From positions 434,806,001-434,870,000 of the forward strand of contig CM097882.1 in the NCBI GenBank assembly GCA_044892505.1: a stretch of 64,000 bases of DNA, given 5' to 3'. This document shows, in pieces, positions 40,694 through 64,000 of the stretch. Positions within the stretch are counted from its first letter, which is position 1. Each line of letters begins with the position of its first letter. The position numbers were made by a program, and so were the translations under genes. The notes under the pieces are model-generated. The model did no database searches and was not told where the DNA came from. It saw only the letters and a list, made by a program, of their open reading frames with translations. The DNA is from Schmidtea nova (Eukaryota).

Positions 40694-40699
40694 TAGTTT

Positions 40700-43215: not shown

Positions 43216-43244
43216 ACGAAAGCAAGTCTCTGTAGCATCTTACT

Positions 43245-46961: not shown

Positions 46962-48137
46962 TTATTTATCATGTTTTGCCGTAATCAGGTATTTGGCTAC
47001 AAACGGGCATAAACATGCTAGTAATTTATATGAATTTCCGAATACTTGTTTCAGCTGTCGTAGTGATTCTAAGGAAGAACAAATCATTTTTAGTAAAAAC
47101 AACCGTATAGTAAATTCCCAAAATTGTAGAGAACATGTTTCCAAGGACTGCAAAATATCCCCATATACTATATAATACTTTATATACTACTTTTTTGAAA
47201 TATTCTTTTGATAACACCACGTCAGAGTTGTAATTTCCTCCATAACTTCCTTCGATAACTTTGTTCACCATTATTGACAGTATTCCTTCTTTTTCGTTTG
47301 GGAATAACATGTGTTTTCTTGCACTTTCTATAGCTTCTCTCGTATATATGCCATTGCTATCCATATCGTTGATTTCTTTAAACTCCAATCTTTTTTCAAG
47401 CTCTATGAGTTTTAATTTGAGGGGTTTCATCGCCTCTTTCCTATCTGACATAGATATCCACATTTCGTCATTTATCTTATATAATGGATTAGTACATTTT
47501 TCTATTTTTCTTGGTACATAAGTTTTTTCTGTTAGTATTCTCGTAATCGGTTGAAGGTATACTCTTTCTCCTTTGTATACTACAGGTAACTCGTTTGTGC
47601 ACTGATTGTTTGTTGCTAATGATACACTAACAGGTTTACATTGGAATGTCTGTATTACTTCCCCTACTATTCTAGCAAATGTTCCCTCTTCTGAAAAGAT
47701 TATTGGGGCCATTAAATCTTGGTTTGTTACTGCGACTGCCATTTTTGTTCTTAATATTTCTCGGTTGAGTTTGCAATCGCTCATAATTGTTGATTGGTAC
47801 ACTTTATCTAGTTGCACTAACTGATTATGATAGAAGAAATCGATTTTATTGTTAAAATACGAAGCGAGTTTGACGTTGAATTTGTTTACTTTCTGTTTTG
47901 CATCTTTAACTTCTTCCTTACTTACGTATATCCCTTCATAATTAGTTCGTATTATTTCCTTACCGCATTTTACACTTTTTCCTTTACTAACAAACCTCAT
48001 TTCTTCATTTTCGGATTCTGACATATATATTGTTGGTGTATCTTTTTCTTGTACAATTGTTGTTTTTCTTTTCTGATCTCTTACTCTTTTAGAATCTACT
48101 TCTGTGAACTGCTTCCCTTTAATTTCTCTAAATTCTC
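46962..48137 (-). pseudogene. env: Chuvirus-like class III fusion glycoprotein (env-like), C-terminal two-thirds with TM
   Basis: CGKEIIRTNYEGIY..YFNNKIDFFY..DCKLNREIL..GTFARIVGEVIQTFQCKPV..CTNELPV..YLQPITRIL..WGYFAVLGNMFSTILGIYY; frameshift near 47080. Confidence 0.8.
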
Positions 48138-48265
48138 GTTTCAAAAATTTAGGAAACGAGCGAATTTACAAAATGTAAAAATCTCTGGAGAGGCAGGCAG
48201 TGCTGATAATAAAGCTGCTGAGGATTTTGTAGCTAAATTCGATGATTTCCTTAAAGAAGAAAATC
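48138..48265 (+). mobile_element. Internal pogo/Tigger transposase fragment
   Basis: FQKFRKRANLQNVKISGEAGSADNKAAEDF matches the Tigger/pogo motif RFKKR..L.NVK..GEAASAD. Confidence 0.75.
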
Positions 48266-49400
48266 TATTTATTACCCAACTCATCCATCCTTCTTCGGAT
48301 TCTTCTCTTTCTACTCTTGTTAAACGGTTTATTTCTACTGCTTGTCTTTGATTGATGTTACTTATAGTTTGATTTTCTCTGGTGAGCTCAGTTATAACTC
48401 TTTTTTGCTCTTCTGTTCTATGCAATTGTTCAAAACAGTTGTTATAACTCTCTGATAATAGAATTTGTCTTTCCGCTAGTTGGTTTTGTAATGAGTTGAC
48501 TGTTCGTACTAGTAAATCACATTGCGCTTTCCATCTCATGGCCATAGTTATTTCAGTTGTTTCGTCTTGTTCGTTCATTTCTAAATTATATACATCAATT
48601 ACTTTCTCGTTTTCTCTTTTTATGTATTTTATAATATCGATACCCATACTATTACGGTAATGCTTTATTATTTATACTATTATTTACAGTCATAATCCGC
48701 CCCTATACTCTCATTACTTTCCTTTCGTCGTATCTCTCTTCATCTTCTATTTGCTTCCAAAATTCTTTACCTTTCGTTCTTCTTTGAAATTCTTTCTGTA
48801 TTTCTTCTGGTATTTCTATTCTTTGATTCGTAATTTTAATATCTGGCCATTGTATGGCTGTCGCTTTATTTCTCCTCCTGTACATCCAACATACTATCAT
48901 GCTCGTTGTCAGTATTCCACCTGTTATTAATATTCCCATACTAATTACTCCTATTACTATTTTACCAGTGTTTGTTTCTTTGGTTTTATTCTGATTCACC
49001 CTTATCTCATATTTGTCTTGGATTTGAGCCTCCGGCTTCCTCTCCTTCTGCGCTTGGCTCTTGACTTTGTTCATTACTTCTTGTGTAGACCAATGGTGGT
49101 TTAGTATTTGTTTGGCGTAGTTTTCCGTTGTTCGGTTTCTCATGTTTCCTGTTTCGATATGTTGATTCAGTTTCTCCGAGATCTGGTATGATCCGCACTC
49201 TGTCTCCTCTGAATTTTTTCCTGTAAAGGTACATATCGCGTATGTCTCATTTACCTCCTTTTGCCTTAATTCGACTTTTCCCTTGTTCCCTGTTTCTTTA
49301 CAATGGGTTAGGTTATCTTCTTCTACTTCTGGGTTATGTTTTATCCAACATACTCCTTTCACAGTCTGTTTGAGTCCTATTAATGTTAAATTATTATTTC
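48264..49400 (-). mobile_element. Fragment of a sister copy of the giant element (last FN3-like repeat, TM, tail, spacer and coiled-coil ORF)
   Basis: Collinear with ~56177-57310; proteins 48703..49362 and 48264..48578 closely match 56622..57280 and 56137..56493. Confidence 0.93.
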
Positions 49401-49953
49401 CTAGCGATTTTTCTTTTGAGCGCGTTATTCACTAATATATAACGAACAACTGTTTTATAACTAAGTTTTATTAATATATTACAAATGCTGGGTTCATGGA
49501 GGGGTTAGATGGAAAATGCTCTAACAATGACTAGGGATCCCTCATCCATGATCATGCATAAAATTGCAATTCTACACTCAAGCGCCCTTGATTATTTCCC
49601 TATATAATCAAGTTGGTGATGCGCAGGGTGGTTAAACAATGATGGGCAGGTGAGCACTATCGCTAGTACTACTCCCCATTTATGTTTACGGGTTCATCGC
49701 TGCCGTTAGAAGGACTTATGCTTTAATCATCTACTTATGTATTCCGCGTTAATCTTTCAGAAAATTTATTTTTATCATTGCTCAGTCTGCGAGAAGTATT
49801 TCAACGAATGCTCGCTTAATGATTTAATTATCTCTATTCGATATTTTGTAAAATGAATTTATACTTTTGTTCTATCTTTATCTAATCATTGGTAAAGTTA
49901 ATTAAATCAATTTAAATGAACGATAAAATTCTTAAGCCAATACAACAATTTAT

Positions 49954-50550
49954 TTAATTTTTAATTAGTTCGGTAAAAACTCCCGCCGGAGGAAAAATCT
50001 CCGTCAATAATGCCTCCTCGGTCATCTGATGTAGACCATCTACTTGGCTTTGTAATCGCTGGGCAAATAATTTTCTCCGTCTCCGCCGTTTCTGCCCAAT
50101 GCGCTTGCGTTTCTGGTGCGCATTTGCCGATGAGGTGGTTGAATTTGCTGCAGGAGCGGTCTCATTCCGACTTTCGATTAGATCGGCGACATCCGTGCCA
50201 ATAGAGGTTACCGTCTTCTTTTCTGATGTCCAAGCTTGATACGTAACCGGACGGATTTGCTCTCTGAGCTCTTTCTCAATATATGAGGCCGTTACGGAAT
50301 GGAGGCATTTTCGGAGTTCTATCTTTGTAGCCTCCCATTCCTTTTGATAATCGGCTGCCGTCTGTTGGGCGCGCTCGGTTTTACTGATTTGCTCCTTCAT
50401 TCGGGCCGGAGCAAACCAGCTTTTGCGCAAGTATGCAATCTGTGCCTCTGCTTTGATCAATTGTGCCTTGAGGAGACCCAATTCCTTGTCCTGGGCTCTC
50501 CGAATCCGCCACATCTTTTCCAATTCTCTCTGCATCAAATCGGTGTTCAT
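49954..50550 (-). CDS. Hypothetical coiled-coil protein with basic NLS-like tract, inside the putative LTR
   Basis: 198-aa ATG ORF; KRKRIGQKRRRRRK; TAG-a-ATG context. Confidence 0.55.
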   Translation of the reverse strand: MNTDLMQRELEKMWRIRRAQDKELGLLKAQLIKAEAQIAYLRKSWFAPARMKEQISKTERAQQTAADYQKEWEATKIELRKCLHSVTASYIEKELREQIRPVTYQAWTSEKKTVTSIGTDVADLIESRNETAPAANSTTSSANAHQKRKRIGQKRRRRRKLFAQRLQSQVDGLHQMTEEALLTEIFPPAGVFTELIKN

Positions 50551-50727
50551 TCTATAATTTGTTTAGGATATTTACTCTATGATTTAATTATATAAAAATT
50601 AAAATCTGATCATAGGATTATTAGGTTACGAATATGAACTATTAAAATGCGAAACAAAACTCAAAAACAAAAATTCACTAATGAACTCTAATATTTTAAC
50701 ACAATTTCAACATTTGTTAATCAGTTT

Positions 50728-51204
50728 TCATCTCCGAAACAAACTATGCAATTCACTGTTAATCGGTTTCTGACGAAGACGAGCCCAAGAGAATGAGGGT
50801 TGTCCTTTCTGGCACTCCTTGCCGAACGGTTTTCGTGGTAAGAATTCGTACAGACCCAGTTGGCATAGCTCTCGACGAGGGATATGCCCCCAATAAATTA
50901 CACGGCTTGTCCGTCCATCTGTGTCCTTGATCAGTACGACAAGTCGGCCAAATTTGTTTGAGTACGGCCTTTGGGAAATCGGCCAGTTCGGTCCTCCTCG
51001 ATAGAGTATTTTATCGTTTCCTCCGTCCCAGATGGAAAACGGGCACTTTCGACCAAACCCTTGCCGCCACTTGTATGCTTGGGCGTTAATGGTCCGCAGA
51101 ATTGGCTGGGGCAACTCCTTGAGCTGATTGGCCCATCCATTCGCCCTGTCCTCCTTTCCTGAGTTCCGAATCCGCATTAATCTTTCGTTCAACGATGTCC
51201 GCAT
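50728..51204 (-). CDS. Hypothetical basic protein inside the putative LTR
   Basis: 158-aa ATG ORF, relatively GC-rich island flanked by AT-rich spacers; CAG-ATG context. Confidence 0.5.
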   Translation of the reverse strand: MRTSLNERLMRIRNSGKEDRANGWANQLKELPQPILRTINAQAYKWRQGFGRKCPFSIWDGGNDKILYRGGPNWPISQRPYSNKFGRLVVLIKDTDGRTSRVIYWGHIPRRELCQLGLYEFLPRKPFGKECQKGQPSFSWARLRQKPINSELHSLFRR

Positions 51205-52841
51205 CTGTCATTTTATTTTATTCAATAAAGAGTTGAATGTAAATTATATTTAATCTCCATCGTTTTAGTTAATTCCATTTCGTGATTAAACCATTGCCGC
51301 GATATACCACGGTCGAATAAGATATTTGTTTTCCCTGCGCCATGTACGACGATCAGGATAAGATTAATCTGAGTTACCGCGCTATGTACAGCGATCGGCA
51401 TAAAAGTATTTTTAGAATTTACAGATTTTTAGTTTTATTTAGAATGGAATTTAAAGTATTTTTAGAATGTACCAATTTTCAGTTTTACTAATCTCTGTCA
51501 TGCAGTTGCGATATCCTGTACCTTGACCTCAATTGAAAATCATCAGTTTGATCGATTTACTTGGAAAATTTTTATAACTTGTCATGCTACGCCGGCTCTC
51601 TCGTCCTCAAATTTAACCTCAGCGTGTCAACCCATTTGTCTCGGGTACCTGACACTTATCGGGTACTTTACCCCTTCCTGGTATCTCCTTAGACCTTCTC
51701 TACCGCCGCTGCGCTACGTCCCCTGTACAACCAAATGATGACTTTTTACCTATCGCCAGAAAACCGTCTGGACGTATTCGCATTATTGATATTTCGTGAC
51801 TGAAAATTTACTCGACTAAATAAGCATCAAAATTCTCTAATCTCGCTGATAAATATCTGGTTAACTTTGAATGATTTACTTTAATTGTTTCAACTACCAA
51901 ATTAAAAATGAAAACCAAAACAATAAAAAGGTTGAACCGCCATGTGAGACCGTGAGGCCCCACAACGACGACTCGGACTCCCTCGCCGCGTGAGCAGCAT
52001 AGGAAGTATAACTATATGCATTAAAAATAATAAAAAAAATAAAAAATAAAAAATAACGTTTACATATAAGATTTTAATTAAATAAAAATCATGGGTACAT
52101 CATATAAGATAACATAAAAAAAATTACTTCCGTACTTGAATGTGTGGTTCCTTGTATGAAATTCGGTTCTTTCAAAAAATTTACTCAAATCAAAGTTTAG
52201 TCTTGATTGTGAGTGAAAAGTAAACGTCTAAGTCTGTGATTTTTGGATCGGTATTTATACTGATCCGTCTGGTTGGATTGACCAATCAGGATCAGGCCGT
52301 CCTTCAAAGTATTTTTATTATTTTAATCTAACCTAAACATTATTTTGTTTCCTTTTCCGGTTTCTCGCTGGGTGGTCCTGATTTTCCAAGTAATTAATTA
52401 ATTATTTGTACTATTATTTTATTTAATTCTATTTTTTCTTATTTCAGGCCCCCTTTTGCGGTTGTTTACCGGTTTATTTTCAAAATTTCCTTTTACTGAA
52501 AATTTATCAATTATTATTTGTCGTTTTATTGTTATTTTTAATTTGTTTTTCTTGCTATTTTTATTTTTATTATTTCTTTATTGTTTCATGCTTTTGTTCG
52601 TTTTATTGTGTTTTTAGGTGATTTGGCGGGCCCAACATCACCCGGGGACCCCTAAAATTGCGTCCCGCAATTAATTATACATAAATACTTATATTCATCA
52701 TCCATAAAAAGTTTTATAAAGTTATACATGCAAGAAAGAAAATCACATAAGGTGATCGAATTTATACATATCATAAAGTTTGTCACTAAATAGTCAAAAT
52801 GTAATGATTTGTCACAATAGTTCGATAAGTTATCATAATGT

Positions 52842-53411
52842 TTATACAATTTGTTCGATCGTCTGGCTCGCTTGGGGTTGAGTTCGGGTCCTCTCGTTGA
52901 TTATTTGTAGCTCGTAGTGGGTTTGAATGTGGTTGAGATGGCTCCTTATTCGTCTTTGAGCTCGGTTATCTCGTCTGGAGGTTTGGTTGTAGATTTTCTG
53001 CTTTTGTTTTAGGATTTTTATTCTATATGAGGCAAGCAGGATTGTGATTGCGATGATAGTTGTGCTGACTGCTAGGATTATGATGATTGCTATGATCCAT
53101 TTTCCTTGATATTCTATTTCAGCTTGGGATAGGCTTTTTATGGGTTCTCTACCTTCTTTCAGGATTTTTCGGGTTTCTTCTAGTTTCAGTTGTTGTTTAT
53201 CGAAGATTTGTTGGATTTGATGGTCTTGATTGTGAGGGTATTTCTGTCGGAATTCGTTGATTTCTTTAATTACTTCTTCGATTAGGCTGTCTACTTTCTG
53301 ATAGGTTTTGTCGGGTAGAACTCGTAATTGGGTTTCGGTTAGTTGTAGATCTTCTCTCTGTAGGGTAATGGTTGTTAACCATAGGAGTGTTGCTATTGCG
53401 AGCTTTCTCAT
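52842..53411 (-). CDS. Small type I membrane protein (signal peptide, helical ectodomain, TM, basic tail)
   Basis: MRKLAIATLLWLTTITL; WIIAIIIILAVSTTIIAITILLASY followed by RIK. Confidence 0.7.
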   Translation of the reverse strand: MRKLAIATLLWLTTITLQREDLQLTETQLRVLPDKTYQKVDSLIEEVIKEINEFRQKYPHNQDHQIQQIFDKQQLKLEETRKILKEGREPIKSLSQAEIEYQGKWIIAIIIILAVSTTIIAITILLASYRIKILKQKQKIYNQTSRRDNRAQRRIRSHLNHIQTHYELQIINERTRTQPQASQTIEQIV

Positions 53412-53486
53412 CTCTTTTATACATCGGTCAATACAGCTTGACACTTTTTATTTTACATAATTTATTTACACTTGGTTTCCGCACAT

Positions 53487-54548
53487 TTATACAAGGGTTT
53501 CGTTGGGTTCGTGACAACCTTCGTCTTGAGGTTCCACTTGATTTATGGGGAGTGGCATCCATATTACCGTGCTCCTCCACATTTCGACTTCTTCTCGGTA
53601 TGTGTGGGATATCTGGATCTCTTCATCTAATAAGTATTCCAGATAGTTCGCCTGTTCTGTTAGGGTTTCAATTTGCTTTTCTAGTTCTGCCAATTTTTTC
53701 TCTCTCTCTTCCTTCTCCATCATTTCGGTTACTGCTGCTGTGATACTTGTTTCTTTTATTGGTATTGGTTTTTCTGCCAACTTCTTTCTCAGTTCTTCGT
53801 TTTCTTTTGTCAAATTTGTTATGTTCTCTTCATAGCTCTGCCTCGTTTCTTCCAGTCTTTCTTTAGTTCTTTTTAATTCTATTTTCTTCTGGGTGATCAC
53901 TCCTTGATATCCATTTATGTCTCTTTTCATGTTTTCCTCCTTGTGATTCCACATTCCGGTCAGCATACCTTTTAATTGTTCTTGATTGGCTAAATCTTCT
54001 CCCATTCTTTGTACTTGATAAGTTAATTCTTTTATTTTCTTGGCTTGTTCTCTGATAAATTGTTGTCTTTTCTTACTCCATACTTTATTTGACGCTTCTT
54101 GACTGATCTTTTGCCCTAATTCCTCTTTTAATTCATCGATCTCTTTAAACAGTTTCCAATCATCGCTGTACGCTGTTCGTTCTATTATCTCCCTTGCTTC
54201 CTTGTAAGAGTCTTCTGCCTCTTTCTTCCAATATCTTGCTTGTTCTGTGATTGACTGAATCTTATGGTCTGTTTTTATTTGTTGTCTATCCCTATCCTCT
54301 CGTCGCTCTTTCATCATCTCTTTGTAGTATTCGTTTTGTTGTCTTAGCAGTTTGTAGACTTCTTCTATTTTTTCTCGACTTCTTTGATTCGTTTTCTCGG
54401 CTTCTCTTAGTGCTTGGGTTTGTCTTTCCAATTCCTCCTGTTTTCGATAGTAGGCATGAATCCATATCCCAATCCGCTCCATGTGATTTCTGATCATTTC
54501 GTCTTGATGTACTGTTACTTCTTGTAAGGTTACTTCTATATTTCCCAT
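53487..54548 (-). CDS. Long coiled-coil protein, 353 aa
   Basis: E/K/R/Q-rich heptad-like sequence; uninterrupted ATG ORF starting MG. Confidence 0.75.
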   Translation of the reverse strand: MGNIEVTLQEVTVHQDEMIRNHMERIGIWIHAYYRKQEELERQTQALREAEKTNQRSREKIEEVYKLLRQQNEYYKEMMKERREDRDRQQIKTDHKIQSITEQARYWKKEAEDSYKEAREIIERTAYSDDWKLFKEIDELKEELGQKISQEASNKVWSKKRQQFIREQAKKIKELTYQVQRMGEDLANQEQLKGMLTGMWNHKEENMKRDINGYQGVITQKKIELKRTKERLEETRQSYEENITNLTKENEELRKKLAEKPIPIKETSITAAVTEMMEKEEREKKLAELEKQIETLTEQANYLEYLLDEEIQISHTYREEVEMWRSTVIWMPLPINQVEPQDEGCHEPNETLV

Positions 54549-54667
54549 TTCTATAATTACAGATAAAACGAATATTTAATCATTTTTTATTTTTATTTTT
54601 ATTGTTTTTGATTATTTGTTAATTCATATTGTTTCTATACATTTTATTTACATGGTTACTTCCTTCA

Positions 54668-56044
54668 TTACGCCAACCATCCTTTTCTGTCTGTTTTCTC
54701 ATGCCTCTCCATCTCTATGTATAGCGTGTCTGCATATAGTTGCTCCCATAGGTTTTCTTTCCTTATAAACATTGGTTCTCCTGCTGCTAGTCCGCATTCT
54801 GTTGTTGGTTTTTCGCTCGTACTCGTATGTTTGTCTGTTTCAAAGAACTTTTCTACTGGTTTTCCCATACTTTTGATTCTTATAATGACTCCTACTTTCA
54901 AGGGCCATTCTATTAGGTCATCGTATTCTCCTTTACATAGCGAGAAAAATATTGACACGTGTGTTCCTTGTCCCCTTCCGTCTCCATTTGGGTATACTTT
55001 CAATCTTATTTTAGCCCCGTTTTTCCATAAATAAAATGGTGGGCTTATTACTGCTGTTTTCGTCATATTTCTGGCTTCTGCTAGTTTGTCTCTGAAATCT
55101 GTTACTTTCCATAGGTAAGGTGCGATTGGTAAGTCCCTTCTTTCGTCAATTTCTCGTATTAATTGATTATATTGTATTTTCATTCCTTTTCCTAATTCTT
55201 CTATGGCTATTATTTTCTTTTCCATTCTTTCGCGAGTTAGTTCGAACTGCTCTCTTGTTTCTAGTAGTAAACTCATCATTATCTTATGTGATTCTACTTC
55301 TTTTTCTAATTTCTGGATTGTCTGTTCCGTTTCTTTTGTCGTTTCGTTTGTCATTTCCACATGCGTTAGTGCTGCTTCTTCTAGATGTTTGTTCATTGTT
55401 TGTCGCGTCCGCTTTTCCTTGCATCCATGCTTGTTATATGGGCATTCTCTTGGCCTTTCGGTACATACTTTCCAATGTTCATGTAACTTTATTTCTTCTG
55501 TTATTTCACAATTGTTTGGACATTTACTTGCATATTGTCCGCATACTTTCTCCTCTGTTATATTCAAATGTTCTTCTTTGATTTTTCTCCTTGTTTCTCG
55601 GGCTTCACAATACTCGCATGCGATTTCTTTTTCTTTACATTCTTCCTTGTGTTGTTCTCTCTTCTTTAGAATTATTGTCTGTTGGCACTTCTCGCATTCG
55701 GTTCTTTTCTCCTCGCACTTTTCCATATGGTTTTCTAGATTACTTATTTGTCCTTGCCATGTACAAGGTGTATTTACGCACTCCGTTGTGGTGCTCATAA
55801 TTTCTCTTTGGGTTGCTTTGTCCGTTCGGGTTTCGTCCAACGCTATTCCTCCTTCTTTACATTCTGGGCATGTTGTTATTCCTGTTGCATCTAATTCTTG
55901 TATACATTTTGTACATATTCTACATCCACATATCGTTTGTCTGGGTTCTCGTAATAAATTGTTACATTTTCCGCATGTGAGCCTCTTGCTCCATTTTCTG
56001 TTTTCCAATCTCAAAATTTCGATTATTCGTTCTTCTCTGTCCAT
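54668..56044 (-). CDS. TRAF: Intronless TRAF2/3-like protein (RING, TRAF zinc fingers, coiled coil, MATH), retroelement cargo
   Basis: CGKC..LREPRQTICGCRICTKC..CPEC; multiple C..C..H..C fingers; YLWKVTDF..SPPFY..LKVYPNGDGRGQGTHVSIFF..GEYDDLIEWP..AGEPMF..DTLYIE. Confidence 0.95.
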   Translation of the reverse strand: MDREERIIEILRLENRKWSKRLTCGKCNNLLREPRQTICGCRICTKCIQELDATGITTCPECKEGGIALDETRTDKATQREIMSTTTECVNTPCTWQGQISNLENHMEKCEEKRTECEKCQQTIILKKREQHKEECKEKEIACEYCEARETRRKIKEEHLNITEEKVCGQYASKCPNNCEITEEIKLHEHWKVCTERPRECPYNKHGCKEKRTRQTMNKHLEEAALTHVEMTNETTKETEQTIQKLEKEVESHKIMMSLLLETREQFELTRERMEKKIIAIEELGKGMKIQYNQLIREIDERRDLPIAPYLWKVTDFRDKLAEARNMTKTAVISPPFYLWKNGAKIRLKVYPNGDGRGQGTHVSIFFSLCKGEYDDLIEWPLKVGVIIRIKSMGKPVEKFFETDKHTSTSEKPTTECGLAAGEPMFIRKENLWEQLYADTLYIEMERHEKTDRKGWLA

Positions 56045-56136
56045 TTTCTACAATAATATATACATTCGACTTGTCATTTATTTTTGGTTTTTCTTGTTTT
56101 TATTTTTACATATTTACAATTTTCCGCTTTATTTAT

Positions 56137-56493
56137 CTATGGCTCATTCGTTGAATCTGGTTCCGCTTCGTTGTTTAGTCTATTTATTACCCAACTCATC
56201 CATCCTTCTTCGGATCCTTCTCTTTCTCCTCGTGTTAAATGATTTATTTCTATTGCTTGTCTTTGATTGGTGTTGCTTATTGTTTGATTTTCTCTGGTGA
56301 GTTCAGTTATCGCTCTTTGTTGTTCTTCTATTCTGTGTAATTGTTCGAAACAATTGTTATAACTTTCTGATAATAACATTTGTCTTTCCGCTAATTGGTT
56401 CTGTAATGAGTTGACTGTTCGTACTAATAAATCACATTGTGCCTTCCATCTCATAGCCATAGTTATTTCAGTTGTTTCGTCCTGTTCGGTCAT
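56137..56493 (-). CDS. Small coiled-coil protein, 118 aa
   Basis: ATG ORF conserved in the sister copy at 48264-48578. Confidence 0.7.
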   Translation of the reverse strand: MTEQDETTEITMAMRWKAQCDLLVRTVNSLQNQLAERQMLLSESYNNCFEQLHRIEEQQRAITELTRENQTISNTNQRQAIEINHLTRGEREGSEEGWMSWVINRLNNEAEPDSTNEP

Positions 56494-56621
56494 TTTCTAA
56501 ATTATATACATCATTTACTTTGTTTTTCTAGCTTTTTACAAATTTTTTTATAATATCGATACCCATACTATTACGGTAATGCTTTGTTATTTACACTATT
56601 ATTTACAGTCATAATCCGCCC

Positions 56622-58070
56622 CTATACCATCATTATCGTCTTTTCTTCGTATCGTTCTTCATCTTCTATTTGTTTCCAGAATTCTTTACCTTTCGTTCTT
56701 CTTTGAAATTCTTTCTGTATCTCCTCTGGTATTTCTATTCCTAGTTTCATGATTTTGATATCTGGCCATTGTATGGCTGTCGCTTTGTTTCTCTTTCTGT
56801 ATCTCCAATATACTATTATGCTTGTCGTCAGTATTCCATATGCTATTAATATTCCTATACTCATTAATCCTATTATTGTTTTTCCACTGTTTGTTTCTCT
56901 TTTATTCTGGTTCGCTTTTATCTCATTTTGGGTTTGAGCCTCTGGCTTCTTCTCTTTCTGTATTTGACTCTTAACTTTGTTCATTACTTCTTGTGTAGAC
57001 CAATGGCGGTTTAGTAGTTGTTTGACGTTATTTTCTTTTGTTCGGTTTTCCATGTTTCCTGGTTCGATCTGTTGTTGTAGTTTCTCTGAGATCTGATATA
57101 ATCCGCATTCTGGTTTTTCTGAACCTTTTCTGGTGAAGGTACATATCGCGTATGTCCTATTTACTTCCATTTTCTTTAATTCGACTTTTTCCTTATTCCC
57201 TATTTCTTTACAGTGGGTTAGGTTGTCTTCTTTCCCTTCTGGGTTATGCTTTGTCCAACATATTCCTTTAACTGTTTGATCGAGTCCTGTTATTGTCAGA
57301 GTTCTTTCTGTCTTTGTTAATTCTTCTTCATCGAATTTCAGTATCTCTCCTTTTTGGAATGTCTTGCAATGCTCTATTCCCTCTTGGATTCCTCTCTCCC
57401 AGATACATATACTTCCTTCTTCATTCATTTGTATTTCTTGTATTTCGATTTCCTTGTTTGTTCGTGATTCGTCGCTTGTCTGAACTTGGTATTCCTTCCT
57501 TGGTTCGTTGTATGTTCCCCAGCATAGTTTGTTGCTGCTTGTTTTTCTTATTGTTATGGCCATTTGTTCTATTATTATTCCTTTATCGATACGTTTGGAC
57601 ATTGCTATTATCAACGCTATGCATACGCACTCTTGTTGGGGTGATGTTCTTTCTCTCGTGTTATTGGTGCTTTTCTCCCCTTCTCCTGGTTTATCCGTTG
57701 TGTTTCTTATCTGAGTTGCTGGTTGATCTATGGTGTTTTTGATTTCTTTCTTTGTTGGTTTTACTCTATACCATTCAAGTCTAGGTGTTTCGTATTTTTG
57801 GCATACGACTGTCTTAGGTAGCCCCGACTTCTTTTCCTTTCCTATTATGCATATCCGATGCATGATTCCTCTATCCATCCCTTCTATTCGTACTATATCC
57901 TGGTCGGATTTTCTGATTATGCATTTTAGGGGGTTATCTTTCCCAATTGGTTCATCCTCTCTATTCCAGCATATTTTCTCGACCTCCTGGACATTTACTA
58001 TTTTTATCCCTGCTTGTAGGTTTGTTGCTTCTTCCCTATTGATTAATGTCAATATTATTGTTAGACCCAA
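56622..58070 (-). CDS. Type I membrane protein with three Cys-type FN3-like repeats; paralog of the polyprotein C-terminus; lacks an ATG
   Basis: WLGLTIILTLI signal-like segment; ICW..C..I.I..(Y)..IC..C..Y repeats; IIGLMSIGILIAYGILTTSIIVYW-RYRKRNK. Confidence 0.8.
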   Translation of the reverse strand: MGLTIILTLINREEATNLQAGIKIVNVQEVEKICWNREDEPIGKDNPLKCIIRKSDQDIVRIEGMDRGIMHRICIIGKEKKSGLPKTVVCQKYETPRLEWYRVKPTKKEIKNTIDQPATQIRNTTDKPGEGEKSTNNTRERTSPQQECVCIALIIAMSKRIDKGIIIEQMAITIRKTSSNKLCWGTYNEPRKEYQVQTSDESRTNKEIEIQEIQMNEEGSICIWERGIQEGIEHCKTFQKGEILKFDEEELTKTERTLTITGLDQTVKGICWTKHNPEGKEDNLTHCKEIGNKEKVELKKMEVNRTYAICTFTRKGSEKPECGLYQISEKLQQQIEPGNMENRTKENNVKQLLNRHWSTQEVMNKVKSQIQKEKKPEAQTQNEIKANQNKRETNSGKTIIGLMSIGILIAYGILTTSIIVYWRYRKRNKATAIQWPDIKIMKLGIEIPEEIQKEFQRRTKGKEFWKQIEDEERYEEKTIMMV

Positions 58071-58107
58071 CCATTTTGAACTCTGCGGTAGGCTTCTGGT
58101 TCGCCTT

Positions 58108-61100
58108 TCATATTTTTTTCTCTTCGCCTTTAATCTCTTTTAGTTCCTTGTCTTTGTTGTTCATCCCTAGTTTTGCGATTTTTGCTTCTTTCTTATTCCT
58201 GGTCGATTTTGGTTCTTCTCGTGCTTCTAGTCTTTCGACTCCATGGCTTGTATTATCTATATTTAGCCATTGGGTTGTTGATTTTCTTGGGCTTATCTTG
58301 CGTATCCATATAGCTGATAACGCGATTATTACTGGTATGGTCGCTGTTAATATTCCTAAGCCAATTAGTTCTTTAATTTCTTTATTCTCGTCTGTTTGTA
58401 TAGATTCGCTTTGGTTGAACATTATTCCGTATTGTCCCTTTAGTTTTCTCATTAATTGTTCCCGTTCCTCCTGCTTTCTTTTGACTTCCTTGATAACTTC
58501 TTCGGGTGTCCGTTTTGCTTGAGGGTCGGTTATTGTTTTTTCTGCGTTCATTTGTTCATTCGTTTGGCTTAGTTCCCTGAATTCGAGTTTCCTTGTTATT
58601 CCTTTTGATGTTGCGTTCGCTGGTGTATAGTAGGTTTCGCATCTTTCTTGTTGGTTTCCTAGTGCGTCCGTTTTTTCTATTGTACATACTTCGTATTCGC
58701 TATTAAATTGTAGTTTTTCGATCTTGATTTCTTTATTTGTTTTTCTGCACTTTCTTGATTGTCTTCTTATATGTTTCTGGACTATTATCCAACATATTTC
58801 CAATGTTTTATTCTCTATTTTCCATAATGTCAGAGTTGCTGATGTCTTTCTCTCGGGTTTTGTCGTAACTTTTTGGTTTGTTGGTTGTTTGTCGCTTTTA
58901 AGGGTAGTGGTGTACTTCGGTTTTCCTTTGTTTCGTTGTTTCCTTTTATTTTTCCGTGTTAACGTTTTGGTTCTTGTTCCGGATGAAGTGGTGTATATTC
59001 CGCATTCTAGGTCGTTTATCGTTATCTGATCATTTTTCTTTACCAGACATATTTCGTAAGTTTGTTTACTTTCTAAACCTTTTATTTGTATCGTCGTTGC
59101 TCCTGTGCTTGTTCGACATTGTGGTGTCTTTCTTTCATTCGTCTCTTTTTCGTACTTCCTCCAGCATACTCCTTTCACATTTGGTTCTATTTCTTTTATT
59201 TCTAATGTTATGTTTAGTTTCTGCTTGATTTGTTTATTTCTCTTCCTCGTTCTCCTTCTGAACTTTATTACTTCTCCAGGTTGGAATGTTTTACATTTTG
59301 TGGTACCTTTCTTGTTTGTCTCTTTTTCTAGTAGGCATAGTTTGTACGTCTTATCTGCTTTTACTTCGGATACTTTAATTACTTTATTCGTTGTTGGTTT
59401 TCGACTTTTCCTTATTTCATTTACGCCGATTTCCTCGTTATTCCTTGCCCAACATTTTATGTTAGTATTCTGTGTATCTTCTACTTCTGTTATTGTCATA
59501 GTTTCAATTTCTATTCCTTCCTCTAATCGTTTTATCATTATTAGTATGAGTGCTAAGCATAATACTTCCATTTGGTAAGACACTCTTTCGGTTTCGTTTG
59601 TGGCAACTCTTGCTTCGGGCCTCTTTATTGTAATTCGTATAGTTGGTGTTGTTTGCTTATCTATTACCTGGGGTTTTTTGTTTTCTGTTCCCTGTGTCTC
59701 TGTTCTTCCACATTTTCCGAGGATGTAATCTCCTTTGGGTGACTGTTGTATTGTCATGGCTGCTTTAGGTGTTTGGTATTTTGCACATGCGATTGTGTTG
59801 TGTGATCTTGGATGCTTTTGTTTTCTAACGGTGCATATTTTGTACCAGGTATCTAGATCTAAGTCATTGATCTCTATGATCTCTTGCTCGTGTTTTGAGA
59901 TTCTGCAATCCATCGGGCTATTTTGTTCCGTGGTTTTGTCCTTTTTCGACCAACATACTCGTTCGATTCCTTTTGCGTTTTTTATTTGTATTATTGCCCT
60001 TTCTTCACATGTCATTCCCTGACTTGGATTAATTAACGTTATAATCATTGTTAGTAATAGTAATTCTGGTTTGAAGAATGGTTTTATGGTTGATTTATAA
60101 CCTGTTCTTTGGGTGTCATTTTTATCTCCTTGGTCGTTTGTTCCTTGTTCTCTCCCTTCATCTCTTTGTTTTTCATCTTCACCTTTCTTTCCTTCCTTGT
60201 CTCGTTTCTTGTCTTTTCTCTCGTTTTCCTCTTTATCGGGTGGTTCGTGATCGCTTGAATTTTCTGAGTTGTTACCGTCGTCACTATCTGTGTTGTCATC
60301 TCCCCCTGGCTCGTCGAAAATGTCGTCCTCGACATTGATTTCTTCTATTAGTTTCGCATACGCTAATGTCGTTAGATTACTTGCCTCAAATTCTTGTGTT
60401 TCTACCTGCTCCGGTATTACTTTGTTAGTGGATTTATGTTCCAAGATTTCCTTTTTGGCCTTGATCCAATTGTTGATGTATGTCTTCATCAATTCTTTCC
60501 ATTTGCCTGTGTATTTTTCCTCTTTCGGGCTGGTTGTGATTTTTAGATCTTTTCTTTCCATAAACATCTTCAATATCTCTGGCCATTTATACGTTATTAA
60601 GGCACTTCTTATACACCAGTTTTGGTTATGTTCTGTAAACTTATTAATCCTGAATGCTGGTTCGTTAGTATTAGGATTTATCCACGTAAGTATTGATTCT
60701 GTTAGTTCGACGTTGTTCATCATTGCTAGTACACTGGGTTTCTTGACCGTATCAGTTAGGTGATCTATTTCTTCCTGATTTGGGACGGTTTTAATGAAAT
60801 TGACCATTTCCCAATTGTGTGTTAATAATGCTACATCCAATATCGAATTATCTTTATCTGTCTTTCCTGTAAGTCCTGCACCTGCTTTGTATAGTTCTTC
60901 TAATACCTTTGTTTTCGTTCTGGCCCTTGCTGCAAATACCATAAGTGTATCTCCTTTCTCGTCTATCATATTCATATTGCTTCCGCAATTTAGCATTACT
61001 CTTGCAATTTCCATTACTTTTCTATCTTTGCCATTTCGTAAAGCTCTATGTATGGGCATTATTCCGTCTTTTGGTAGTAAAAACGCTACTGGCATCTCCT

Positions 61101-64000
61101 TTTTTATAGTCGTTATATCGTTACCATTGTATGTTCCTTTTGCGTATGCGTGTACTTTTTCAACTAATGCACCGAGTATTTCCAGTGCATGTTTACTATT
61201 CTCGAATTCCGGTAACAATTCTTTTGCTTTTTCTTGTATCGCATCTAGTCTAGCTTGGTATGGTGCTTCTGCTTTGAAGAGTGGTGTGAGTTTCTTGTTA
61301 CTTTCTCTTTCTTTTTTCTCTAAAACCTGTTTGCATTTTTCGGGATGGTTTAAGATTTTTACTAATTCCTCATATTCGCTTACTATCGTCTGGTATTTCT
61401 CGTTAAAATTGTTTATGTCTTTGTATGTTATTAGTTTATCAAGTGGTTTCGCACACCATTTCCTAATCTTATTGAATAAGGCTTCCTTCTCTTTATCGAA
61501 TTTGTATTCTTCTTCATTCTTTGTGATGTTTATGTTTCCTCTGTCTAATAAGGTTAGTAATGTCTTCTGATCACAAGTAAATTTCAAAAGGTATCTTAAC
61601 AGTGCGTTTTGTCCTTCGCTGTATACTTCGTTTATGTCTAAGACCCATGTATCATCTTCTGGTCGTTTCCATTTGATTAACTTACGGATCGTGTTGCATT
61701 TACCAATTTTGATTGCCTCTTTGATAATGTCTCCTTTAACTAGTTCGTCTATCTCCCAAGTGGAGTTAGCTATTATGTATTTCAGCATTGGTTGGTGAGA
61801 ACTCCATATTACGTGATTTAGCACTGTTTTGTCTTCTCTATCTCGTTCTGTCCAACTGAAATGAGCTTTTATCAATAGGTCTATCATTTCTTTATCTGCT
61901 TGGTGGATTGCGGCTGTCATTAATGGAGTTTCTTGTTCCCGATTCCCTACGTCCAAGTTTTGGTTTGTTTCTTTTGCGATTTTTAGGAATTCTTTTGCTC
62001 TTTCAATGGTTTTACACTCTATCGCATTATGTAAGGCTGGTTGTCCTCCTACATCTTTCAATAAGAGTATTTCAGGGATTTTTTCCAATAGTTCAGAAAT
62101 AATTGGTTCGGTTGGTAATCCTTGTGCGTAACGGCTAATTATATGTCTAATATCCCTTGATATGTCTGCTTCGTCTCTAACATGCCATCTTCCCATTATC
62201 TCTCTCGCCTTCAATATGATTTCTTTATTTCTGATTTCTTTTTGCCTTATTTCTGCTTTGTCGTCTTCAGTTGCATTAGCTCTGAGCATATTTATCCTGG
62301 CTGTTTGTGATCTAGTTATTATTCGATTTTCTGGTGTTGTAGTTATCGTTTTAGGCACCTTCTTACATCTGCAGGTGTTTACATATATGGGTCGTATTAA
62401 CGGTCGATTTATTAGCTTAACTTTGACATTGTTGTCCTTTTTGTATATAATTTCATAAGGTCCTCTTCCAGGTCTTTGGAGTTTCTTAACAGTTCCTGGT
62501 ATTATTTCGGGAGTTTCTATTATCACCCAATCTCCTGGTTTTAGGTCGTTCGCTTTAACATTTTTCTTCTGGTCGTGTAAATCCTTATAACTTTCCTGAT
62601 AAAATTTAATGTTGAGTTCTGCCGTTTTCCATATCTCCTGCATTCTTTCTTTGAATTTGGTTACGTAGTCGTCATCTTCCATATATTGCGCTAATGGTGG
62701 CTGATACTCTAAATCTATGGGCATGTTGCATTCTCTTCCATACATAAGTTGAAATGGGCTTAGTTTTGTTGCTGCATGTATCGACATTCGGTATGCCATT
62801 AAACATAATTTTATATATGCGTCCCAATCAGTCTGATGTCTGCTGACGTAATTTGATAACATTCTGATCAATGTACCATTGAATCGCTCCGTTTGTCCAT
62901 TCGTTTGCGGGTGATATGGTGAAGTTCTCAATTTTGCTATTCTGAAATAGTTTGTTACCTCGTTCAATAACTCACTCATAAAATTAGTTCCTTGGTCTGT
63001 GAGTATTTGTTTTGGAGTTCCGTATCTGCAACATATTTCTTCCACTAAAATTTTTGCTACAGTTTTTGCTTTTTGGTCTTGCATGGCAAATGCTTCCGGG
63101 AATTTTGTCAGATAATCTGTTATCACCAATATATAAATATTTCCGTTTAGACTTTCCGGTAATGGTCCTATTACGTCCATTGCTATAGTTGTCATTGGCT
63201 CTGCTGGTATCGGCATTGGTTGTAGCGGGTTTTTCCATTTCCTCCCACTATCCTTTCTGGTTGCACAAGTTAGACAATTTTTAATCCATTCCTTTATATC
63301 TTCTTCCATTGTTCGCCAATAATATTTTTGTCTCATACGATTTATTGTCTTCTTCTCGGACATATGACCTCCTAATTTCCCATCATGGTACTGGATCATT
63401 ATCTCTTTCCTTCTGTTTTCCGGTAAACACATCAATCTCTTTTCTCCGTCTTGTATTAACAACCATCCTTTATTTATTATGTAGCGATGTTGATATTTCC
63501 CTATATGTTCCTTTAATTCCTTATTATCCTTGAATACCTCCATATTTCGAGACGTTAGGAACTCTATGATCTGTCCCAATTCTTTGTCTTCCTGTTGATC
63601 TTTCTTTAACTCACTAAAATCTAAATCCTCCGCTATTAATACACAAATTCGTTGTACATCAGGATCGGTTAATTCCGGAAATGTCAGTCTTGACATACAA
63701 TCTGCATTCGCATTCGCTCGTCCTGATTTAAATTTTATGTCTGGTGAGTACTCCTGTAACTGCATTGCCCATCGCATTAATCTACTGGATGTTTCCTTGT
63801 GCTGTCCTAACCATACAAGTGGTTGGTGATCTGTTGTTATGCAGATGATGTGTCCCCATAATAGGTATTTAAAATGTTTAATTGCTAATATAATCGCTAA
63901 TGCTTCTCGCTCTGTCACTGAATAATTTTTCTCATGCTTTTTGAATGTCCGGCTATAATATCCGATTACCCGTTCCTTTCCTTCGTCGTCGTATTGTCCT
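58108..64000 (-). CDS. pol: Pol polyprotein: RNase H - integrase (HHCC, DDE, GPY) - ankyrin clusters - acidic linker - signal - 4 FN3-like repeats - TM - tail; open to the window edge
   Basis: EREALA, TDHQPL, YHDGKLGGH..CLTC, AMDVIGP, LTDQG, TERFNG, GRGPY; GQPALHNA, ETPLMTAA, IMPIHRAL, GDTLMVFAA; LLLLTMIITLINPSQG; LIGLGILTATIPVIIALSAIWI-RK. Confidence 0.93.
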   Translation of the reverse strand, partial: GQYDDEGKERVIGYYSRTFKKHEKNYSVTEREALAIILAIKHFKYLLWGHIICITTDHQPLVWLGQHKETSSRLMRWAMQLQEYSPDIKFKSGRANANADCMSRLTFPELTDPDVQRICVLIAEDLDFSELKKDQQEDKELGQIIEFLTSRNMEVFKDNKELKEHIGKYQHRYIINKGWLLIQDGEKRLMCLPENRRKEIMIQYHDGKLGGHMSEKKTINRMRQKYYWRTMEEDIKEWIKNCLTCATRKDSGRKWKNPLQPMPIPAEPMTTIAMDVIGPLPESLNGNIYILVITDYLTKFPEAFAMQDQKAKTVAKILVEEICCRYGTPKQILTDQGTNFMSELLNEVTNYFRIAKLRTSPYHPQTNGQTERFNGTLIRMLSNYVSRHQTDWDAYIKLCLMAYRMSIHAATKLSPFQLMYGRECNMPIDLEYQPPLAQYMEDDDYVTKFKERMQEIWKTAELNIKFYQESYKDLHDQKKNVKANDLKPGDWVIIETPEIIPGTVKKLQRPGRGPYEIIYKKDNNVKVKLINRPLIRPIYVNTCRCKKVPKTITTTPENRIITRSQTARINMLRANATEDDKAEIRQKEIRNKEIILKAREIMGRWHVRDEADISRDIRHIISRYAQGLPTEPIISELLEKIPEILLLKDVGGQPALHNAIECKTIERAKEFLKIAKETNQNLDVGNREQETPLMTAAIHQADKEMIDLLIKAHFSWTERDREDKTVLNHVIWSSHQPMLKYIIANSTWEIDELVKGDIIKEAIKIGKCNTIRKLIKWKRPEDDTWVLDINEVYSEGQNALLRYLLKFTCDQKTLLTLLDRGNINITKNEEEYKFDKEKEALFNKIRKWCAKPLDKLITYKDINNFNEKYQTIVSEYEELVKILNHPEKCKQVLEKKERESNKKLTPLFKAEAPYQARLDAIQEKAKELLPEFENSKHALEILGALVEKVHAYAKGTYNGNDITTIKKEMPVAFLLPKDGIMPIHRALRNGKDRKVMEIARVMLNCGSNMNMIDEKGDTLMVFAARARTKTKVLEELYKAGAGLTGKTDKDNSILDVALLTHNWEMVNFIKTVPNQEEIDHLTDTVKKPSVLAMMNNVELTESILTWINPNTNEPAFRINKFTEHNQNWCIRSALITYKWPEILKMFMERKDLKITTSPKEEKYTGKWKELMKTYINNWIKAKKEILEHKSTNKVIPEQVETQEFEASNLTTLAYAKLIEEINVEDDIFDEPGGDDNTDSDDGNNSENSSDHEPPDKEENERKDKKRDKEGKKGEDEKQRDEGREQGTNDQGDKNDTQRTGYKSTIKPFFKPELLLLTMIITLINPSQGMTCEERAIIQIKNAKGIERVCWSKKDKTTEQNSPMDCRISKHEQEIIEINDLDLDTWYKICTVRKQKHPRSHNTIACAKYQTPKAAMTIQQSPKGDYILGKCGRTETQGTENKKPQVIDKQTTPTIRITIKRPEARVATNETERVSYQMEVLCLALILIMIKRLEEGIEIETMTITEVEDTQNTNIKCWARNNEEIGVNEIRKSRKPTTNKVIKVSEVKADKTYKLCLLEKETNKKGTTKCKTFQPGEVIKFRRRTRKRNKQIKQKLNITLEIKEIEPNVKGVCWRKYEKETNERKTPQCRTSTGATTIQIKGLESKQTYEICLVKKNDQITINDLECGIYTTSSGTRTKTLTRKNKRKQRNKGKPKYTTTLKSDKQPTNQKVTTKPERKTSATLTLWKIENKTLEICWIIVQKHIRRQSRKCRKTNKEIKIEKLQFNSEYEVCTIEKTDALGNQQERCETYYTPANATSKGITRKLEFRELSQTNEQMNAEKTITDPQAKRTPEEVIKEVKRKQEEREQLMRKLKGQYGIMFNQSESIQTDENKEIKELIGLGILTATIPVIIALSAIWIRKISPRKSTTQWLNIDNTSHGVERLEAREEPKSTRNKKEAKIAKLGMNNKDKELKEIKGEEKKI

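Follow-up and report, generated by a model that had tools for sequence, protein, structure and literature searches.

The window, that is, the whole 64,000-nt stretch of planarian DNA analysed here, raises the question of how a retroelement that carries a row of accessory genes behind its polyprotein gene brings each of them to translation. A first-pass annotation had pointed to a YAG triplet placed like a splice acceptor directly before almost every accessory ATG, and had proposed either alternative splicing from a 5' donor or spliced-leader (SL) trans-splicing. As the host is a planarian, both routes are possible.

The retroelement and its accessory genes

The element has a total length of 29,782 bp, with LTRs of 3,153 bp each, an internal region of 23.5 kb and a 4-bp target duplication; its 5' LTR is located 12–15 kb outside the window. 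By the Burro features described in PMC6431247, it is classified from its sequence as a Burro-like Gypsy LTR retroelement. The polyprotein frame is broken in the window copy and unbroken over more than 5,000 aa in some other copies. Pfam analysis gave the order zf-CCHC, Monjiviricetes fusion domain, protease, RT, RNase H and integrase, with env in frame between gag and protease within a single giant polyprotein. Among the cargo, ankyrin, RING and MATH/TRAF domains were detected by Pfam; BIR, BCL2-like, SUMO-like and dUTPase-like domains gave no Pfam match, and several of these were detected by HHpred according to the Burro part of PMC6431247. A 418-aa ORF without a YAG before its ATG represents the polyprotein tail and not an accessory gene. 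The Rfam search across 84 kb returned no match.

The features of the locus are listed in Table 1. The accessory ORFs starting at 51204 and 50550 sit within the 3' LTR and are present again in the 5' LTR, and a RING ORF outside the window is a further accessory gene of the same element. Full-length matches of the TRAF ORF reached at most 26% identity, and the 118-aa protein had no homologue among proteins of similar length. The 353-aa protein retrieved generic coiled-coil look-alikes in Atlas and nothing more specific, and the Pfam search with the LTR-borne 158-aa ORF remained without a match. The TRAF genes of the host itself show a large expansion.

Table 1. Features of the retroelement locus (positions in the window)
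Feature	Position	Strand	Remarks
Older truncated sister fragment	48264..49386	-	Holds the 48578 ATG, TAG at 48583-48581; outside the LTR-bounded element
3' LTR, TG...CA	49485..52637	-	3,153 bp; 100% identity with the 5' LTR
LTR-borne ORF, 198 aa	49954..50554	-	TAG-a-ATG; top 1.3% under the host matrix
LTR-borne ORF, 158 aa	50728..51207	-	CAG abuts ATG; TAG in another LTR subfamily
Acceptor-like TAG (52014-52012) and GC-rich two-hairpin block	51918..52014	-	Candidate second leader exon
Donor-like GTAATT	52122..52127	-	About 100 nt past the inferred start site; candidate common 5' donor
CCAAT (ATTGG) and TATAAATA boxes	52252..52286	-	Kept in three sister LTRs, also in the distant family
Last gap before the LTR	52638..52841	-	Three TGTA boxes and a conserved block abutting the LTR; no ORF after it
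189-aa ORF	52842..53416	-	Hydrophobic N-terminal and internal segments; weak acceptor AAG or GAG
Coiled-coil-like ORF, 353 aa	53487..54553	-	Acceptor TAG 54553-54551
TRAF ORF, zf-TRAF and MATH (Pfam), 458 aa	54668..56050	-	Acceptor TAG 56050-56048
118-aa ORF	56137..56499	-	TAG at 56499-56497; site of precise GT-AG loss in one genomic copy
Gap 1, 128 nt	56494..56621	-	Twin TGTAAATA boxes after the stop, TGTATATA before the acceptor
gag-env-pol polyprotein gene, 3' part	56622..64000	-	RNase H, integrase, ankyrin repeats, Cys-repeat membrane-type tail
Fossil donor CAG/GTTATA (slash, splice point)	60096..60104	-	Within the polyprotein gene; 5' end of the lost segment

Acceptor-like sites before the accessory start codons

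All seven sequence contexts named in the first-pass annotation were present as described: TAG-aaa-ATG at 56493 and 56044, TAG-aa-ATG at 54548 and 48578, TAG-a-ATG at 50550, CAG-ATG at 51204, and merely AAG or GAG at 53411. The start at 48578, taken there for a sister copy, does show its TAG-aa-ATG context but does not belong to the element; it lies in a separate, truncated older fragment (86% identity over 48264-49386). With this fragment excluded and the RING ORF counted, seven accessory starts were considered. Six of them carry a YAG 0–3 nt before the ATG, compared with 12.5% of the 625 sense-strand ATGs in the element (binomial tail <1e-4 at a 15% null). Three of the four inter-ORF gaps end in YAG plus 0–7 nt (P = 0.012 in dinucleotide shuffles); in a distant second family all four gaps end in this manner, a result matched by 0 of 2000 shuffles.

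A matrix was built from 28 host myosin introns. Under this matrix, which largely gauges T-richness against an A-rich element, five of the seven accessory starts and the gag site fall within the top 1.4% of 2336 element AGs, with the TRAF acceptor at rank 6 and that of the 353-aa ORF at rank 10 of 2336. All six sites of the distant family are within the top 1.2%. Sites 51205 and 53414 score poorly (together the top 17–24%), the former, before the LTR-borne 158-aa ORF, in the top 19% and the latter, before the 189-aa ORF, in the top 17–24%.

The triplets are furthermore conserved. Within the family of the window copy, TAG is kept at the TRAF acceptor in 37/37 copies, at that of the 353-aa ORF in 22/22, and at the LTR-borne 198-aa ORF in all 19 copies with a located start, from 30 loci, a homologue elsewhere having CAG. 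The distant family, with 54–64% identity in the accessory ORFs and the same gene order, shows YAG at 284 of 285 located starts in 73 copies. Its homologue of the 189-aa start reads CAG-aa-ATG in 72/72 copies, and its 353-aa homologue has CAG in 72/73 and TAG in 1/73. TAG and CAG are exchanged at four homologous starts (RING, 353/390-aa, LTR-158 and LTR-198), and the spacer between AG and ATG varies freely from 0 to 8 nt, which agrees with an acceptor but with neither a stop codon nor an in-frame leader AUG. The 174-aa start of the distant family serves as an internal control: of 72 copies, 16 have lost a middle AG located 9 nt upstream of the CAG, and the CAG itself is invariant across all 72. 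In a third, far more distant group (about 38% pol identity), TTTTAG precedes the single accessory ATG; upstream of it lie a CCAAT/TATA and a donor-like GGTAATT belonging to this group itself. Between the two families, identity amounts to 75% in gap 1 and 73% in gap 2, compared with 62% and 64% in the ORFs behind these gaps. The invariant AG, the preference for YAG and the host-like upstream tract point to splice acceptors, probably weak ones at 51205 and 53414.

An account without splicing appears very unlikely. In it the AG is incidental, and local promoters, or stop-restart behind tiny ATG-TAT-ATA...TAG ORFs on unspliced RNA, give access to the cargo. ATGTATA...TAG does form an in-frame ORF of 4–5 codons at 56493, 56044 and 48578, TGTAAATA resembles the TATAAATA of the LTR, and a small distant group has an internal promoter-like region. 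However, the four homologous starts with CAG in place of TAG lack the stop, and the TRAF box of the second family reads ATG-TAA. A TATA box 10 nt before the ATG would be too close, the gaps of the large families contain no CCAAT/TATA pair, and the exact GT-AG loss described below also stands against this account.

Genomic copies with intron-like losses

Eleven short copies were examined, one of which has an insertion at the junction and was left out. Among the 10 clean internal deletions, one has lost exactly a GT...AG segment, 3,605 nt long, whose 3' end is the 56497 acceptor, and the other nine are not GT-AG. AG alone is shared at the junction, and the joint chance is about 2.5e-4 over the 10 deletions. 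Read from its junction, this loss is a genomic fossil of cis-splicing at 56497. Together with conservation and host likeness, it upholds the acceptor part of the first-pass proposal; for the 5' donor part, the sole direct trace is cis-splicing from a donor in the polyprotein gene rather than in the 5' LTR. This donor, CAG/GTTATA, ranks in the top 1.5% of element GTs under the host matrix and reads CAG/GT in four, CAA/GT in two and CAG/GC in two of eight unspliced copies. It may be cryptic and is uninformative on an LTR donor. Products spliced from the LTR donor would lose the primer-binding site, so no LTR-type fossil is expected.

In the distant family, one of five deletions matches, with one mismatch, a GT-AG intron of 95 nt whose 3' end is the TRAF acceptor; the match needs one substitution, and the loss is equally readable as an exact non-GT-AG deletion. 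The other four are unrelated to acceptors. GT-AG intron ends were thus exact at 56497 and near-exact at the second-family TRAF site, and none was seen at the remaining acceptor sites among the copies examined. A pattern search for replaced upstream sequence recovered the known spliced copy at 56497 as a positive control. The same searches, which require exact exon starts and give partial coverage, were empty at the TRAF, 353-aa, LTR-exon and LTR-198 sites, as was that in the second family, whose spacer fits about 19 of 70 copies. Four sequencing runs of unrecorded type, in the form of contigs over 48000-64000, argue neither for nor against splicing: no acceptor coincided with any of the 15 joints viewed (of 24) or of the 24 loose ends viewed (1161 more).

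The spliced copy joins an overlapping basic frame of 78 codons to the 118-aa ORF, giving 197 aa, and a Rev-like two-exon protein was considered. As a conserved feature it was rejected because 3 out of 11 other copies have a truncated frame, the donor is variable, and the phase is unsuitable in the second family.

Inter-ORF gaps and UGUA boxes

The layout of gap 1 is repeated in the gaps 56045-56136, 54549-54667 and 53412-53486. TGTA boxes number 3–4 in every gap, including the last one, which lacks a downstream ORF, and in this copy none lies in the 40 nt preceding the RING and LTR-ORF acceptors. The ATGTATA motif reported upstream of several starts is present there, but its association with the acceptors was not borne out. 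Judging by its distribution, it is part of a Pumilio-like sense-strand UGUA(H)AUA box, separate from the acceptor. UGUAHAUA, the consensus of the Pumilio response element as given in PMC12441121, occurs 7 times in 618 nt of gaps versus 0 in 13.5 kb of coding sequence, and in the second family 6 times in 580 nt versus 0 in 14.0 kb; 0 of 1000 shuffles reached these gap counts. A reading of UGUA as a CFIm site was weakened by PMC5068929, which reports that planarian poly(A) signals lack an upstream UGUA. These signals are often one-mismatch variants, according to the same paper. AATAAA itself is not enriched in the gaps (9 observed and 5.3 in shuffles; 4 and 3.1 in the second family; 64 and 359 of 1000 shuffles, respectively), so that this hexamer gives no evidence of separate 3' ends.

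The T/GTA boxes could alternatively be donors and the gaps short introns, the removal of which would allow ribosome reinitiation on a polycistronic mRNA. GTAAAT is among the commonest host donors, several box-to-AG distances (41–68 nt) have the size of short host introns, and the near-exact second fossil removes the gap alone, from T/GTA. Against this, T precedes GTA in 18 gap sites although host donors need no T, the boxes also fill the last gap with no acceptor following, the RING and LTR ORFs carry acceptors without boxes, and no gap-less copies were found at three gaps with patterns able to catch most of them. We consider it the least probable of the readings discussed.

Putative LTR promoter, candidate leader and possible trans-splicing

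The CCAAT and TATAAATA boxes of the LTR are promoter-like and would serve that function. The GTAATT that follows them lies in the top 1.6% of element GTs under the host donor matrix, and a similar site is found in the distant family. The TAG with its GC-rich two-hairpin block is conserved in 4/4 aligned LTRs, the TAG at rank 29 of 2336 AGs and the block with a fold of -40.7 kcal/mol, a value without shuffle control. This acceptor, 115 nt downstream of the donor-like site, could consume that donor, and no second conserved donor was seen after it. Downstream acceptors would then be unpaired, a situation that favours trans-splicing (PMC8629364).

The same AGs may indeed be mainly trans-splice sites, the cargo forming an operon that is cut behind each gene and receives the host spliced leader, a possibility we regard as real but the lesser one. 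SL trans-splicing is present in planarians, and acceptors in flatworms are widely common to cis- and trans-splicing (PMC12582326). The gaps of 75–128 nt match the operon spacing of about 100 bp in Macrostomum (PMC8629364), and the C. elegans Gypsy element Cer1 has a spliced mRNA that occurs with SL1 as well as without it (PMC3315495). Behind the RING ORF, both families have AATAAA and a T-rich tract, and the conservation of the acceptors fits trans-splicing equally well. However, the sole physical traces are cis events, at operon-resolving acceptors cis-splicing is strongly depleted (PMC12582326), and AATAAA is unenriched in the 3' gaps. Additionally, the spacer lengths favour no reading frame for an AUG supplied by the leader, and such an AUG joined at the gag acceptor runs into a stop in both families. 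In its fullest form, a retroelement-borne operon would turn one LTR transcript into 7–8 SL mRNAs (TRAF, RING, membrane proteins), all under Pumilio control via UGUAHAUA; this we hold to be doubtful. Were operon and Pumilio control both true, signalling cargo would be coupled to the stem-cell programme of the host.

A model for cargo expression

On balance, we lean towards the YAG sites being alternative 3' acceptors that join the cargo genes in cis to an upstream exon, probably a short leader without coding sequence derived from the 5' LTR. Transcription would start from the CCAAT/TATA promoter of the LTR, and the unspliced RNA would serve as the genome, a role of unspliced RNA that is established for LTR elements. 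A donor, likely the LTR GTAATT about 100 nt in, would be spliced to a single acceptor out of about eight weak, host-like ones located 0–7 nt before an ATG, or upstream of gag; we infer that this donor is common to all. Every cargo ORF would thereby take the first position on an mRNA of its own. The UGUA(H)AUA boxes of the gaps would likely be bound by Pumilio or another PUF-type protein, tuning translation, stability or acceptor choice, and these Pumilio-like boxes suggest a concrete host regulator.

The analysis supplies exact junction coordinates and a genomic fossil of splicing at at least one acceptor. If the acceptors are used as proposed, the element would be among the most elaborately spliced LTR retroelements or, if used in trans, the first with a multi-gene spliced-leader operon.

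Comparison with known systems

Complex retroviruses, such as HIV and the foamy-like ERVs of fish, use one LTR promoter and weak alternative acceptors just before downstream ATGs, and retain the unspliced RNA as genome; insect gypsy elements splice env. Here, in contrast to both, env is part of the polyprotein and needs no splice. Unlike the acceptors of complex retroviruses, the approximately eight found here would serve non-overlapping, host-like cargo across 25 kb, with Pumilio-like boxes in every gap.

With the planarian Burro/GYPSM1 elements, as described in the Burro section of PMC6431247, the element shares a size of about 30 kb, a gag-env-pol polyprotein of roughly 5,000 aa, an in-frame fusion glycoprotein of mononegavirus type placed between gag and protease, cargo with ankyrin, RING and MATH/TRAF domains, tandem repeats, accessory ORFs and a very high copy number. 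Long LTRs and internal regions of up to 25 kb are given for Burro/GYPSM1 in the same section, and foamy-like ERVs are also named in PMC6431247. The differences are that TRAF has an ORF of its own within a group of four 3' ORFs, instead of lying in the polyprotein or an upstream ORF as in that review, that two ORFs lie within the LTR, and that BIR and BCL2 were not detected by Pfam. The Burro section catalogues TRAF and ubiquitin-type cargo and does not give the expression mode of the accessory ORFs. BURRO1 is transcribed tissue-specifically once PIWI silencing is lost, and Burro elements are abundant (PMC8532177). The literature searched contained no report of Burro splicing; the original Burro description and the supplements of PMC12582326 were outside its scope and could bear on novelty.

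As in the SL operons of flatworms (PMC12582326, PMC8629364), same-strand genes lie about 100 nt apart with an acceptor before each start; unlike in those operons, the poly(A) signals of the gaps are unenriched and the fossils are cis events. A further parallel is offered by Cer1 of C. elegans, also a Gypsy element, whose cis-spliced subgenomic mRNA occurs both bearing and lacking a spliced leader and whose splice sites are kept in relatives (PMC3315495). Cer1 makes one spliced product from its gag-pol region, whereas the planarian element presents an array of separate cargo genes.

Structure and identity of the element

The accessory ORFs are encoded on the minus strand and belong to an LTR element whose start falls outside the window; LTRs were searched for in the window extended by the adjoining 30 kb of contig (extended coordinates). 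The two repeats have TG...CA termini and a 4-bp target duplication, and the 5' LTR is followed by a primer-binding-site-like sequence, which we take to be a match to tRNA-Pro. Pfam domains follow the order RING ORF, zinc knuckle, Monjiviricetes fusion glycoprotein, protease, RT, RNase H, integrase and ankyrin repeats, with a separate TRAF ORF after the ankyrin repeats. PMC6431247 describes the same kind of layout for planarian Burro elements, and judged by domain order the element matches that description, which makes a planarian the likely host. Copies number in the hundreds (612 candidates, of which the best 40 were scored).

Features of the element and its surroundings
Feature	Position	Strand	Remarks
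Direct LTR repeat	49485-52637		3,153 bp, 100% identical to the other repeat
Direct LTR repeat	76114-79266 (extended)		3,153 bp, 100% identical to the other repeat
LTR cassette	49954-51204	minus	158- and 198-aa ORFs, present in both LTRs
GC-rich LTR block	51918-52011	minus	Kept across four LTRs with diverging flanks; two-hairpin fold
Polyprotein tail	56622-60120	minus	Past the ankyrin repeats; signal-like hydrophobic segment, repeated Cys motifs, membrane-type segments
T-rich AG	73723 (extended; locus L021, about 9,723)	minus	Strong; 643 nt 5' of the gag ATG, no intervening ATG
Tandem arrays	74243-74852 (extended; locus L022, about 240-850)		Two arrays, ~29- and ~32-nt units, between RING ORF and gag
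Flank and its copy	49403-49485; 80526-80608 (extended)		Copy 1.3 kb past the 5' LTR; unoccupied target site
Fusion glycoprotein fragment	47026-48024	minus	Lone, Monjiviricetes-type; adjoins the sister fragment
Second Gypsy element	37600-43238	minus	Decayed, A-rich; pol pieces and Cys-repeat tail

The 418-aa ORF is the tail of the polyprotein, and in some copies the polyprotein frame stays open until 125 nt short of the 118-aa start. The Cys motifs of the tail gave a faint fibronectin-III match (E=0.41), and the tail is possibly a second surface protein. The lone glycoprotein fragment had no blastn match above 150 nt among the retrieved elements, and over integrase the second Gypsy element is no more than 66-69% similar to the Burro-like families. 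Some LTR pairs lie ~44 kb apart, ~17 kb above the usual distance (e.g., G000:C2:297987081-298032414), and are possibly nested insertions of the smaller family of 16-17-kb elements described below. Additionally, a large cluster of host TRAF/MATH genes was observed at ~405-455 Mb of G000:C2 (L044-L073), some with an intronless coding region and an AG soon before the ATG; this cluster is a possible source or recipient of the element TRAF.

Acceptor-like sites at the accessory starts

The first-pass annotation described the contexts of seven accessory ATGs, almost every one with a splice-acceptor-like YAG close upstream, and all seven contexts are present in the sequence. The TAG before the 48578 ATG was read correctly, but this "sister copy" is an older truncated fragment adjoining the element, not part of it. 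With the RING ORF taken in and the sister fragment left out, YAG stands 0-3 nt before 6 of 7 accessory ATGs versus 12.5% of 625 sense ATGs. Across loci of the window family and a sister subfamily (including the window's two loci, and one locus twice), TAG is kept at every located 118-aa (40/40), TRAF (37/37) and 353-aa (22/22) start, with a 2-4-nt spacer, although this is weak by itself because the copies are close relatives.

A MATH search revealed a second family with a 1.68-kb LTR, the same gene order and accessory ORFs 54-64% identical to those of the window family. Among its 73 true members (75 regions retrieved), YAG precedes 70/70, 69/70, 73/73 and 72/72 located starts, the sole exception being the deletion copy L221. 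TAG and CAG are exchanged at the 353/390-aa, RING and LTR-158 starts and at an LTR-198 homologue, and within the window family the RING start has TAG in 2 copies and CAG in 10. This exchange fits a YAG acceptor and argues against a stop codon.

For comparison with host splice sites, host myosin genes yielded 49 candidate introns, and a matrix was built from the 28 short, high-margin ones among them. These introns have weak, AT-rich acceptors (19 TAG, 7 CAG, 2 AAG) and degenerate donors. On this matrix, whose score mainly reflects T-richness measured in an A-rich element, the TRAF, RING, 353-aa, 118-aa, gag, LTR-exon and LTR-198 sites rank 6, 7, 10, 13, 24, 29 and 31 among 2336 element AGs. These seven sites score inside the host leave-one-out range, and all six second-family sites fall in the top 1.2% of 2384 AGs. 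The T-rich AG upstream of gag is kept in 12/12 copies, has a counterpart in the second family and is likely the gag-pol acceptor.

Probable genomic traces of splicing

Short copies were found from LTR pairs; 11 were retrieved, 10 with clean junctions. Copy L159-L162 lacks 3,605 nt, from GTTATA after 60102 to TTTAG at 56497, including the polyprotein-tail part, and only AG is common to both sides of the join. Over the 1,530 bp of LTR still present at each end, its two LTRs match at 99.9%. Ten deletions would yield one with a GT start that also ends at one of six pre-named acceptors with a probability of ~2.5e-4. The remaining nine clean deletions are not GT-AG, several having long microhomology, and a genome pattern search for the junction found this copy alone. 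L221, one of five second-family deletions, is missing 95 nt up to the TRAF acceptor; a single mismatched base at the exon end separates this loss from a GT-AG intron, and it can also be read as an exact non-GT-AG deletion shifted by one or two bases. We infer from these junctions that the RNAs behind both copies were cis-spliced and then reverse-transcribed. The L159-L162 donor differs between copies and may be cryptic.

Cross-family retention, host-like scores and the GT-AG loss at 56497 together indicate that the YAG sites are very likely real splice acceptors, as first proposed, but 51205 and 53414 score weakly (only top 17-24% on the host matrix).

TGTA boxes in the gaps

The gaps, short stretches between the 3' ORFs and before the 3' LTR, contain 18 TGTA in 618 nt, a density of 29 per kb where coding sequence has 3.6; TGTAHATA occurs there 7 times and is absent from 13.5 kb of coding sequence. 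Second-family gaps (580 nt) hold 20 and 6, with no TGTAHATA in 14 kb coding; these gap counts were matched by 0/1000 dinucleotide shuffles. The box lies on the sense strand; its reverse complement is nearly absent. Twin boxes shortly follow each stop and one lies just 5' of the acceptor, a layout mostly aligned between the families. The ATGTATA motif reported upstream of several starts is part of this gap-wide box; boxes also fill the last gap, which has no downstream ORF. UGUAHAUA is the Pumilio consensus (PMC12441121), and by this match the boxes are Pumilio-like. The boxes are less likely to serve CFIm, as upstream UGUA is absent from planarian poly(A) sites (PMC5068929); AATAAA is not enriched in the gaps over shuffles.

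Route of expression

In both large families the LTR carries a CCAAT box and a TATA box, and ~100 nt downstream lies a donor-like GTAATT. Transcription would begin from these boxes, GTAATT would supply a leader, and the leader would be joined in cis to the acceptors before the cargo ATGs. Rfam has no match to the GC-rich LTR block, which is a candidate for a packaging signal or a leader exon. Both ORFs starting at 51204 and 50550 lie within the LTR itself. Homologues of the 158- and 198-aa ORFs co-occur in other elements (198-aa search: 9,625 candidates, best 150 scored) and both are absent from the second family's LTR; by sequence comparison, the pair is a swappable LTR cassette.

Spliced-leader (SL) trans-splicing could use the same acceptors, which are often shared in flatworms (PMC12582326); gap lengths are compatible with operons (PMC8629364), Cer1 offers a precedent (PMC3315495), and an acceptor at 52012 close to the LTR donor may consume that donor. 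Both fossils, however, are cis events and the spacers disregard the frame of any leader AUG, so cis-splicing from the LTR leader is modestly favoured and the SL route is a less probable but serious rival. Pattern searches requiring exact exon starts, for other copies with replaced upstream sequence (TRAF, 353-aa, LTR-exon, LTR-198, second family), found none, as expected under both routes, since cis LTR-leader mRNAs would lose the primer-binding site.

In a third group of 16-17-kb elements (~38% pol identity), four of five copies carry TTTTAG 3-6 nt upstream of the only accessory ATG, and in the fifth the ORF begins elsewhere. CCAAT- and TATA-like boxes and a donor-like GGTAATT precede this TTTTAG in both of two copies inspected. 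Relatives of this size (L094-L113) have 0.86-kb LTRs and env in frame; their one accessory ORF, at the 3' end, seems to be expressed from a promoter of its own and to have a 5' intron, another solution to cargo expression.

Subgenomic splicing is already known in LTR elements, and our literature search found no report of it in Burro. Here, about eight acceptors stand in an array, each gap has Pumilio-like boxes and one junction survives as a fossil, which makes the expression question directly testable.
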